A DNA stretch of 51,013 bases from a virus (lineage: Duplodnaviria; Heunggongvirae; Uroviricota; Caudoviricetes). How positions within the stretch are numbered: position 1 is the stretch's first letter; every line of letters starts with the position of its first letter. Made by a program: the position numbers and the translations under genes. Below the pieces are notes generated by a model that was given only the letters and a program-made list of their open reading frames with translations, had not been told where the DNA came from and ran no database searches. This document shows, one piece after another, positions 30,602 through 32,010 of the stretch. The stretch is taken from IMG/VR virus record IMGVR_UViG_2548876959_000011; one strand, written 5' to 3'.

Positions 30602-31066
30602 CAGGGTTTTCGTCATGGTTAGCGACTTTGCGGCGGTTTAGAAACTGACCATTAAAGTAAATGCAAACGATGATCTGATGATGGTAGCGGCCTAAGAAGC
30701 CAGATGCCACGGGGTATGAGTCGTCCCCCGTCAAAAAATCGACCGCAGAGTGTCCCCGTCTGTGTATTAGGGAACGGGGAGGCACAACAGGTAAGGGCGC
30801 TGGTGTGATTAACCAGATGAACGAGAAGGGGCCATCTGTTGGTCAGCGTCCTTTCCTGTTGCGTTTTCTTTTCAGCGTAACAGCGGTGCTTAACAGCACT
30901 TTGGGTACAGTTCCACGAATTTACGGGTATATCCCGTCATGCTGAAAGCGCTAATCACGCTGGAAGCCAGGGTTGTGCATCCCCTGTTACCGAATTGCAG
31001 CCAGGGCGCGGTGCGCCGAAAAGCATACGGAGGTGGAAGCCCTCGCCGGAGACGTACCCGGCAAGT

Positions 31067-31142
31067 GATGGTGTAGCTCAGCGGTTAGAGCGGTTGACTG
31101 TTAATCAACGGGTCGATGGTTCAAATCCATCCACCATCGCCA
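31067..31142 (+). tRNA. tRNA-Asn (GTT)
   Basis: 76 nt; acceptor GATGGTG/CACCATC, D-stem GCTC/GAGC, anticodon loop CTGTTAA, T-loop TTCAAAT, encoded CCA. Confidence 0.9.
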
Positions 31143-31144
31143 AT

Positions 31145-31220
31145 GCCGGTTTAGCTCAGTTGGTAGAGCGCCTGCCTTGTAAGCAGGATGTCAGCGGTTC
31201 GAGTCCGTTAATCGGCACCA
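31145..31220 (+). tRNA. tRNA-Thr (TGT)
   Basis: 76 nt; acceptor GCCGGTT/AATCGGC, anticodon loop CTTGTAA, T-loop TTCGAGT, encoded CCA; 2 nt after tRNA-Asn. Confidence 0.9.
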
Positions 31221-31223
31221 GCA

Positions 31224-32010
31224 CAACAGGTAAGGGTATTTTGCGACGTCGGAGATCGCCGAGCTTGGCAGAGGGTTCGAATCCCTACGAAGTACCCTTA
31301 CCGTTGTGATGAATGCGCAGGCTGATGCGCGAAAGACATTGCAGCTATTGCGGAAAAGAGCTGTTCGGCGGGGCAATTAAACGCCCGTGAGAGTCTGAAA
31401 TAACCGCAAGCCGGAGATCAGCACCGGTCATCACAACACAACAGGTAAGGGCATTCTCCCTTATGGGGCTTGGCTTAAATGCATCGAGTGCTCTTACCGT
31501 TGTGATGAAGTGCAGCTCTTTGAAGCAACCAGAAGATAAGCATCTGGCTTCACAACATAAACCGCAGGAACGACCAATAAACGGTAGTCCGTATGGAGAA
31601 CACCCCGTTGAGGAAGAGGCCTGGCCGGAACCGTAACCGGCACTACAACGTTGAGAACACTGGCGTAACGGGGTCATATCCCAATCTACGAATAAATGTT
31701 GCGTTGCAGCGTGACAACCAGTGTTCTCAACATTGTGGTGAATGCACAGGCTGATGTGCCGCAACTACAGTAGTGCGCGCTTTGCGGGGCTTGCTACAAC
31801 CCTGTGTCGGAGTTCAGCACCGACCATCACAGTTTGATTCTCTGGCATGAGCATAACGCTGAAATAAGTCCAGTCTGGTGCGGCCCGATCACCCGCCGTT
31901 AGCTCCACGAAACGGAGCACGTAACAGGTAAGAGCATTCTCCTGTAACGGGTTCATATCCCAATCTACAGGTCCACCAGGAATGCTCTTTCCGTTGCGGT
32001 GAATGCGGCT
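31224..32010 (+). repeat. family of four structured imperfect-palindrome repeat units (tRNA-like/sRNA-like), noncoding
   Basis: Units at 31224-31330, 31428-31520, 31643-31760, 31921-32010 share flanks CACAACAGG ... CGTTGTGATGAATGC, long stems and T-loop-like mini-hairpins. Confidence 0.6.

Follow-up and report, generated by a model that had tools for sequence, protein, structure and literature searches.

Conserved hairpins in the ban operon leader of a P1-like phage: a covarying RNA family of enterobacterial phages and candidate sites of RNase III processing

Introduction

In polycistronic transcripts, the host RNase III cuts irregular hairpins or extended stems, such as the early sites of phage T7 (R0.3 to R1.3) and the stems from which rRNA is processed; the cuts separate functional RNAs and leave stabilising structured ends. 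The valley of this enzyme accommodates ∼22 bp of double-stranded RNA. RNase III processing sites were reportedly found in the Q-dependent late RNA of phage lambda (Daniels, Subbarao, Blattner and Lozeron, 1988, Virology 167:568), and a site processed by RNase III upstream of DicF was reportedly described by Faubladier et al. (1990). In the Qin prophage of K-12, the 190-nt DicF species depends on RNase III, which generates its 5′ end by cleavage, and bands of the upstream ydfA transcript are lost in an rnc deletion strain (Ragunathan et al., 2023; PMC10448788). Here we describe a family of hairpins to which this Qin dicBF site belongs and which is represented by five units in the ban operon of a P1-like phage (IMG/VR virus record IMGVR_UViG_2548876959_000011; 51,013 nucleotides, the whole of which is termed the window). 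On balance, these units are probably processing hairpins for the host RNase III, located in phage leaders, with arms that double as recombination joints.

The Qin site has the same stem architecture as the units and, as in the window, occupies an untranslated stretch of an early operon under repressor control, adjacent to dicF in Qin and to a dicF-like region in the window; an STnc100-like domain precedes dicB in the former and tciA in the latter. Qin contains one copy, the stem of which departs from the consensus by four compensated differences, whereas in P1 four or five copies lie in tandem and are interspersed with tRNAs. The published DicF work concerns a cleavage site and does not describe the hairpin family (PMC10448788). 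The T7 sites have no sequence relationship to the units, lack a hypervariable apex and are not found in common among unrelated groups of phages, while the rRNA processing stems enclose a whole functional RNA. Lambdoid 'boundary sequences' and the promoter-stem-loop (PeSL) cassettes of T4-type phages are short conserved border sequences, the cargo of which is shuffled by homologous recombination; the linkers described here differ in being the two arms of one transcribed, covarying RNA helix. Hairpins at which the host RNase III processes polycistronic RNAs of phages are a known kind of element, of which the units are probably new members; the large, uncurated family to which they belong also acts as a recombination scaffold.

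Results

The window has 99.7% identity with phage JL22 along the queried stretch, and annotation of the ban operon was obtained by coordinate transfer from the P1 reference (NC_005856). A covariance model, R1, was built from relatives, and the window was scanned with filters off. Exactly five members were detected in the 51 kb, all of them on the + strand, which is that of the ban operon, and the next-best match elsewhere had an E value of 0.45. The members, termed U0 and A to D, are as follows.

30783-30863, + strand: unit U0; R1 27 bits, E 1.5e-4, with the same score on the − strand; fold −40.4 kcal/mol, z −4.2
31222-31308 (R1 31216-31334), + strand: unit A; R1 87.2 bits; fold −50.9 kcal/mol, z −5.6
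31437-31504 (R1 31431-31529), + strand: unit B; R1 60.9 bits; fold −43.4 kcal/mol, z −3.7
31641-31740 (R1 31638-31763), + strand: unit C; R1 65.2 bits; fold −55.6 kcal/mol, z −5.4
31920-31998 (R1 31914-32024), + strand: unit D; R1 69.9 bits; fold −41.9 kcal/mol; repeat D5

Units A to D correspond to the four related units proposed in the original prediction and scored 61 to 87 bits on the + strand versus 22 to 28 bits on the − strand. Every unit was predicted to fold as a long hairpin (−40 to −56 kcal/mol; z −3.6 to −5.6 relative to dinucleotide shuffles), and the + strand folds were better than the − strand folds by 6 to 8 kcal/mol per unit. The 5′ half-copy that had been reported near 30786 is actually a complete, divergent hairpin of 81 nt, U0, with a CACAAC...GTTGCG base but without the bulge or the GUGAAUGC tail described below. 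A repeat search recovered the common 5′ flank, the 3′ flank, the apex blocks and the long inverted repeats; the repeats are real and well above chance.

The predicted outer stems of units A to D contain 19 to 24 paired positions. The stem of unit A reads CACAAC-A-GGTAAGGG.../...CCCTTACC-GTTGTG and that of unit D reads CGTAAC-A-GGTAAGAGC.../...GCTCTTTCC-GTTGCG, while unit B combines the conserved stem with a short, 28-nt apex and unit C has a variant stem, CACTACAAC-GTTGAGAACACTGG / CCAGTGTTCTCAAC-ATTGTGGTG, and an apex containing ACGGGGTCATATCCCAATCTAC. The family architecture is exact in A, B and D; C lacks the bulge and its stem is compensated, and U0 is a weak fit. Stems of 12 to 14 bp had been proposed, and perfect 14-nt arms are indeed present (gttgagaacactgg at 31651-31664 and ccagtgttctcaac at 31718-31731), but this length is too short for a core of ∼19 positions. 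The 59 nt that had been counted between the stem halves of unit A, as in a tRNA, are 48 nt between the 13-nt arms, or 60 nt if 7 bp are counted. The flanks had been assigned to every unit: the 5′ flank CACAACAGG is exact in U0, A and B but is replaced by CTACAACG in C and CGTAACAGG in D, and the 3′ flank CGTTGTGATGAATGCGCAGGCTGATGCGC exists but is full in A and C only. The same two units have a full GUGAAUGC tail with a 5-bp hairpin behind it (GCGCAGGCUGAUGCGC or variants with compensated changes), and the hairpin after unit C, GCACAGGCTGATGTGC (31744-31759), carries a compensatory change relative to the small hairpin of unit A. An alternative form of the tail, GCGGCUAAGCGC, is present in D; the tail is degenerate in B and absent from U0. 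A U-rich tract, TTTTCTTTTC, directly follows U0, and no other unit has a U-tract behind it.

The consensus of the family is 5′ CACAAC-A-GG-U-AAGAGCAUUG ... CAGUGCUCUU-U-CC-GUUGUG 3′, a stem of ∼19 positions consisting of 6 bp, a bulged A, 2 bp, a 1×1 mismatch and 10 bp with a conserved U·G wobble, topped by a hypervariable apex with a length of 25 to 95 nt. Among 74 units, the mismatch is U·U in 43, U-A in 11 and A-U in 9. At the wobble position, UG is found 51 times, CG 10 times and UA 8 times. Predicted outer stems have a median of 19 pairs (range, 15 to 27). Covariation was analyzed with an alignment of 46 non-redundant sequences and 23 pairs, using 500 shuffles and partners slid by 1 to 3 columns as controls. 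Pairing was observed in 95.4% of the cells versus 32 to 57% in the slid controls, and changes on both sides were detected in 14 of the 23 pairs (71 cells), with none of the 500 shuffles reaching the observed values. Both conservation and compensatory changes are found in relatives. The U·G wobble and the other G·U pairs exist on the + strand only; because of these pairs and of the asymmetry in scores, the structure was assigned to the + strand RNA. The part of the original prediction that held is that the units are structured + strand RNA elements, co-transcribed with real tRNAs and not protein coding.

The surroundings of the units are also conserved. A small hairpin, an intrinsic terminator (17 of 94 contexts, with a T-run just upstream) or the 3′ end of a tRNA (9 of 94) is located directly 5′ of the units, and GUGAAUGC followed by a 5-bp hairpin with compensatory variants of its own is located 3′. 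Of the tRNAs within 700 nt, 30 are on the same strand and none is on the opposite strand; no tRNA is present within this distance for 64 of the 94 non-redundant members. Flanking open reading frames (ORFs) of at least 180 amino acids are co-oriented with the units by 48:8 downstream and 53:13 upstream, and only 1 of 89 units overlaps an ORF of this size.

Units alternate with spacer domains closed by GUUGUG/CACAAC. The spacer domains of the window are as follows.

31303-31437, + strand: spacer domain S1; closing helix present in the minimum free energy (MFE) fold, closing 9-mer covarying family-wide
31499-31556, + strand: small spacer domain S2, closed by GTTGTGATGAAG / CTTCACAAC; from sequence reading, the fold and repeat family D2
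31993-32116, + strand: spacer domain S3, an STnc100-like tciA leader; Rfam STnc100 39.2 bits (gathering score, 47); MFE fold

The closing pair of S1 is formed by GTTGTGATGA (31303-31312) and TCATCACAAC (31428-31437), that of S3 by GTTGCGGTG (31993-32001) and CACCGCAAC (32108-32116). S1 contains the small hairpins GCGCAGGCTGATGCGC (31315-31330) and GCCGGAGATCAGCACCGGT (31410-31428) and has a GTTGTG segment in common with unit A. Across the family, the 3′ GUUGYG together with the three bases that follow it is matched by an exact reverse complement 64 to 191 nt downstream in 27 of 95 contexts and upstream in 1 of 95, and the variable bases covary (GUG/CAC in 20, GCGGUG/CACCGC in 4 and AUG/CAU in 3, with CUG/CAG in lambda). 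As the GUUGUG segment is shared, the base helix of the unit and the closing helix of the spacer are alternatives; in longer contexts, the MFE fold selects the spacer helix, which abuts the upper stem of the unit. The STnc100 match (RF02076) extends over 31995-32114 and model positions 31 to 147 of 206, closing helix included, and covers the spacer domain upstream of tciA rather than the hairpin units. STnc100 and the PasD prophage small RNAs (sRNAs) (Zhu, Shabalina and Storz, 2026 preprint) are among the nearest known systems. Matches to STnc100 were frequent in the late regions of Shiga toxin (Stx) phages near TerB genes.

The link to RNase III comes from the Qin member located between ydfC and dicF (L135 19168-19282; 34 bits), which has the 6 + bulge + 2 + mismatch + 10 architecture. 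Subtraction of the published 190 nt from the 3′ end of DicF at L135 19435 places the 5′ end at ∼19246, inside the 3′ arm of the Qin unit (19239-19258). The predicted stem size of the family is in keeping with the two-turn RNase III substrate of ∼20 to 22 bp. Because of their homology to the Qin member, units A to D would be expected to be cut by RNase III as well.

Members of the family were detected in a wide range of phages. An exact-pattern scan for CCGTTGYGRTGAATGC identified at least 120 viral contigs; a family sample of 130 units, 87 of them unique, was extracted from the loci listed, and R1 gave 135 matches in 100 of these loci. The phage records name Escherichia, Klebsiella, Salmonella, Shigella, Cronobacter, Yersinia, Enterobacter and Citrobacter as hosts. 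The segment 31302-31438 of the window, a 137-nt block that represents spacer domain S1, is 97 to 98% identical to pL-leader segments of mEp460, Stx2 and lambdoid phages, where the counterpart lies in an untranslated leader downstream of a cI-like repressor gene. Near-identical stems with unrelated apices are present in the late leaders of lambdoid phages, where they are flanked by Q or tR′ on one side and by lysis or TerB genes on the other, and in T1-like lytic phages the units are located just past a strong promoter and ahead of tRNA genes. The units form one family of cis-encoded structured RNA modules, widespread in Enterobacterales phages and located in untranslated operon leaders. No Rfam family covers the units, either at the gathering score in 16 related loci or at E ≤ 10 in the window region. 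A full-text literature search for the conserved sequence strings retrieved only unrelated plant papers, and a search for papers on the P1 ban operon or transcriptome retrieved nothing usable.

Phage lambda has exactly one member, of canonical type, at 44781-44885 (stem, 44787-44862), right after tR′, the terminator of 6S RNA. As this late-leader match was the only one in the R1 scan of lambda, the RNase III hairpin of the N leader is not a member. The global MFE fold of the whole lambda late leader was uninformative, alternative pairings being dominant. The lambda coding sequence (CDS) orf-64 (L133 822-1016; lambda 44621-44815) overlaps 6S RNA, tR′ and the first 29 nt of the unit, and its annotation is probably spurious. 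Two divergent members were found in Qin of K-12, the one between ydfC and dicF and one in the late leader near cspB. The latter (37 bits; L135 11141-11230, corresponding to NC_000913 1641140-1641229, minus strand) lies between cspB and essQ/ynfU, along the direction of late transcription, and has no RNA annotation in K-12. No member was detected by R1 in the DLP12 prophage.

Close relatives of the window provided evidence of recombination. P1, P7, D6, SJ46 and Ro157c2YLVW differ from the window mainly at junctions inside the arms of units or in shared apex blocks. In P1, the 3′ arm of A is fused to the 3′ arm of B with a loss of 196 nt; the P7 junction consists of two joined 5′ arms; and in SJ46 the apex block of C is fused to that of D. 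In D6 and P7, 31757-31982 is replaced by a tRNA-Ser and a further unit, and an additional tRNA-Tyr together with an insert of 160 nt is present in Ro157c2YLVW. In these relatives, tRNA-Thr is followed by 2 to 4 strong units, and many more coverage classes were observed in E. coli plasmids, as were further tRNAs (among them Arg, Ser and Tyr). The location of the breakpoints inside conserved arms and the varying copy number indicate that the arms are recombination joints. In Ro157c2YLVW, a 129-nt ORF insert was also observed between spacer and unit C, and a small ORF and a 'putative serine protease' replace tciABC downstream of the array (L004 3274-4318). D6 has an additional member (41.5 bits; L003 3933-4012) downstream of tRNA(CAT), so that in P1-like phages the module is not confined to the interval between tRNA-Thr and tciA.

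Most of the apices are unique, but some recur. Units C and D have a 25-nt apex block, GTAACGGGTTCATATCCCAATCTAC, in common; a block with the sequence ACGGGnUCAUAWCCCAAUCYAC is found behind different stems in C and D of the window, in mEp460 and in several IMG/VR contigs; and the apex of unit B recurs in Klebsiella phage 5 LV-2017, where the stem is compensatorily changed. A 70-nt block, AATTAAGCGAATRCCGGAAGCAGAACCGGATCACCAAATGCGTACAGGCGTCATCGCCGCCCAGC, forms a unit apex in D6 and P7 (L003 2695-2815; L005 2858-2978) and the interior of a spacer domain in lambda (L133 1069-1136); the same cargo sits in two different frames. T-arm-like hairpins (at least 4 bp; loop U[UG]CRANN) were detected in 10 of 56 non-redundant apices versus 0.37 expected and a maximum of 3 in 200 shuffles, and they usually abut the 5′ or the 3′ strand of the stem. 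A T-loop-like hairpin had been predicted in every unit of the window. Using a 5-bp stem and a UUCRANN loop as the definition, it is canonical in unit A (AGGGTTCGAATCCCT, 31272-31286), present as GGGKTCATATCCC in C and D, the loops of which (GUCAUAU and UUCAUAU, respectively) lack A58, and absent from B and U0. No complementarity of at least 14 nt was detected between the apices and the rest of the window. The U0 apex has, at 30814-30826, a 13-nt exact complement at 47185-47197 (+ strand; ∼0.07 expected by chance), which is intergenic, after an ORF ending at 47131.

The repeats sit in the C1-repressed ban operon, between tRNA-Thr and tciA according to the transferred P1 annotation. Other features of this region are as follows.

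near 30368-30413: ban promoter and operator (P1 annotation transfer)
30508-30609: dicF-like region (P1 annotation transfer by coordinates)
30574-30600, + strand: intrinsic terminator with an 8-bp stem and T8, at the end of the dicF-like region (terminator scan)
31067-31142, + strand: tRNA-Asn(GTT) (ARAGORN)
31145-31220, + strand: tRNA-Thr(TGT) (ARAGORN)
31345-31956, − strand: ORFs matching plp and upl, judged spurious

The two tRNAs of the Asn/Thr pair scored 74.5 and 72.9 bits with the Rfam tRNA model. The stretch after tRNA-Thr that holds units A to D is 927 nt long and is followed by tciA, tciB, tciC, tRNA(CAT) at 32848-32923 and ban. The entire hairpin array is downstream of the terminator at 30574-30600, and no internal sigma-70-like promoter was found within 30300-33250 on either strand. 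As this strong terminator is situated between the ban promoter and the tRNAs, the units, tciABC and ban, expression of the downstream genes would need read-through or antitermination.

Discussion

Our favored explanation, which we regard as probable, is that the units are RNase III processing hairpins. Upon derepression of the ban operon, the array would be transcribed together with the tRNAs, and the host RNase III would cut the conserved stems, chopping the long leader into segments. These cuts would free the tRNA precursor block and the tciABC-tRNA-ban mRNA and separate the spacer domains, the structured ends left behind would set the stability of the flanking pieces, and the apical hairpins would be released. 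Excision by RNase III makes the 'processed small RNAs' of the original prediction plausible. At the DNA level, the near-identical arms would serve as joints for homologous recombination, with apices, spacer domains and tRNA genes being swapped between phages.

Several points weigh against this explanation. Cleavage of the P1 copies, with its consequences, is predicted from the homologue, and the position of the Qin cut is ∼19246, being arithmetic from a published RNA size (± a few nt) and not a nucleotide read from a gel. The placement of the RNase III sites of lambda within 44787-44862 is our own and putative. As the basal GUUGUG can pair in two ways, the geometry of the substrate in vivo is uncertain. 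The sequence preferences of RNase III are weak, so the conserved stem sequence, the bulged A and the U·U mismatch are not explained by the enzyme alone; recent horizontal spread and the role in recombination probably contribute to sequence conservation, and another binding factor may do so. The recurrence of apices behind different stems and the enrichment of T-arms suggest that the apex is not just filler. Finally, knock-down of trnT, plp, upl, tciABC, trnI and ban by CRISPR interference (CRISPRi) left P1 plaque formation in the laboratory unimpaired; the region is dispensable for plaque formation.

One conserved module without an Rfam family would connect three classical but so far separate observations: the cleavage of lambda late leader RNA by RNase III, the DicF precursor of 190 nt and the occurrence of tRNAs in leaders of P1, Stx and P22-like phages. 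The 46 non-redundant sequences and 14 covarying pairs are a ready seed for a new RNA family, and a defined RNA feature replaces the doubtful plp and upl of the P1 reference and probably also orf-64 of lambda. Recombination inside hairpin arms provides a route by which enterobacterial phages that are unrelated to one another shuffle leader segments, tRNA genes and sRNA-like domains.

An extension of this explanation concerns the apices. The stem might be a universal frame for excision and exchange and the apices phage 'RNA cassettes' that are released by RNase III and traded across the arms, with the tRNA-minihelix mimics and the ACGGGYUCAUAWCCCAAUC module acting on host factors or anti-phage systems. 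We consider this joint proposal doubtful; if true, lambda, P1, Stx and T1-like phages would possess an RNA counterpart of gene cassettes or morons. In a related alternative, which overlaps with RNase III processing and does not exclude it, the units are primarily cassette precursors of trans-acting or protein-binding small RNAs, with the stem as an excision signal and the apices as the functional products, for example as regulators, sponges or decoys of proteins that bind tRNA or act in defence. The hypervariability of the apices, some of which recur behind different stems, the 10 T-arm-like hairpins among 56 apices, often abutting the stem as in a tRNA minihelix, and the 70-nt block that is found in an apex in D6 and P7 and in a spacer domain in lambda are all consistent with this alternative. 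It is nevertheless unlikely: the window apices lack long complementarity to the rest of the window, the Rho-independent terminator or U-tail that Hfq-dependent sRNAs typically have is lacking, most apices occur only once, as unconstrained sequence would, and no stable RNA species has been reported. If the apices are functional, a large unexplored reservoir of phage small RNAs exists in the best-studied phages.

A second alternative is that the units act as DNA only, as inverted repeats similar to miniature inverted-repeat transposable elements (MITEs) or as recombination linkers, without any RNA function. The mosaic breakpoints in the arms, the variation in copy number among close relatives and the conservation of arm sequence beyond that needed for pairing could be explained in this way. 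The G·U pairs and mismatches are, however, strand specific, the units are co-oriented with tRNAs (30:0) and also with flanking genes, the asymmetric flanks are kept (the small hairpin upstream and, downstream, GUGAAUGC with its compensating hairpin) and an RNase III-dependent RNA end lies inside a homologue. An exclusively DNA-level role is, hence, very unlikely. MITE-like repeats as such were rejected, as the inverted repeats are present but their orientation is fixed to that of transcription and their pairing is strand specific; target-site duplications were not examined.

Slightly less credible still is the view that the units are tRNAs in decay, or mimics that the machinery of tRNA processing would handle, which was close to the proposal of the original prediction that they are tRNA-like RNAs or degenerate tRNA copies. 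That proposal proved only marginally right. Unit A starts 2 nt after the CCA end of tRNA-Thr and has a canonical T-arm, the arrays of relatives hold extra tRNAs (Ser, Tyr and Arg) and T-arm-like hairpins are enriched family-wide, the last point keeping a connection to tRNA open. ARAGORN, however, detected only the three real tRNAs, and no unit was matched by the Rfam models of tRNA (RF00005), tmRNA or YrlA (RF02553) in cmscan searches, even at E ≤ 10; the sole YrlA match covers two real tRNAs at 25.6 bits versus a gathering score of 69. The conserved part of the units is a 19-position stem without a D-arm or an anticodon arm, and the tRNA-like piece is confined to the hypervariable apex and missing from B, U0 and most members. 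In addition, 64 of 94 members have no nearby tRNA, and lambda has a member while its record annotates no tRNA gene. Membership of the units in the tRNA family is largely refuted.

The units could also operate at the level of transcription, as put-type antitermination RNAs, as structures shielding from Rho or as attenuators. Members are found right after terminators (tR′ of lambda and the T-run in 17 of 94 contexts) or after the early promoters of untranslated leaders, and the window array is itself downstream of a strong terminator. We give this little credence, somewhat below that given to decayed tRNAs. The put phage HK022 has no member, the best R1 match having 11.7 bits and an E value of 0.12 in a scan of 22000-40751, a region covering the two early leaders; no comparison was made with the put sequences as such. 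Units follow rather than precede the adjacent terminator, tandem arrays of up to four are unlike known antiterminators, and only U0 is followed by a U-tract. A role as intrinsic terminators was rejected, since the + strand scan detected only the terminator of the dicF-like region, a possible role for U0 aside.

The least probable alternative, and one to which we attach almost no weight, is that the region encodes minus-strand proteins, plp and upl, as annotated with predicted promoters in NC_005856. The original prediction had seen no credible ORF here; a 139-amino-acid minus-strand ORF is present, corresponding to plp/upl of the P1 reference, and was judged spurious. Minus-strand stretches of 116 to 147 amino acids without stops persist in all six relatives (L001 to L006) despite rearrangements, and, read in the plp frame, 7 of the 15 substitutions leave the amino acid unchanged. 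Against these points, there was no Pfam match, although no wide homology search was made, no CDS is placed here by RefSeq/PGAP in hundreds of P1-like plasmids of E. coli, no sigma-70-like promoter is present on either strand, the plp frame of Ro157c2YLVW has a stop at codon 82 and CRISPRi knock-down had no phenotype. P1 Plp and the ORF of the window share 86 amino acids and then diverge fully, because the 196-nt A/B deletion shifts the frame and the P1 ORF then runs antisense into tRNA-Thr. The pattern of conservation is explained by pairing of the + strand RNA; the persistent stop-free stretches are probably a side effect of the repeats, and the P1 plp and upl CDS annotations are probably spurious. 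Other candidates were rejected: integron attC sites, as CACAAC/GTTGTG is unlike RYYYAAC/GTTRRRY and no integrase was seen in 29 to 34 kb, the rest of the window not having been searched, and CRISPR-like or ToxI-like arrays, as the units are irregularly spaced (196, 233 and 261 nt) and form hairpins, the interior of which varies.

Two further segments of the ban operon were observed to have counterparts in other phages. A block, GCGACTTTGCGG..TTTAGAAACTGACCA..AAATGCAAACGA, is located at 30612-30680, just after the terminator of the dicF-like region, and also opens leader RNAs of T1-like phages after a strong promoter (L010 ∼1795-1850; L011 ∼1548-1600). The segment 32924-32995, between tRNA(CAT) and ban, almost matches the start of the pL leader of mEp460 (L007 2255-2330) and represents a further leader block common to P1 and lambdoid phages.

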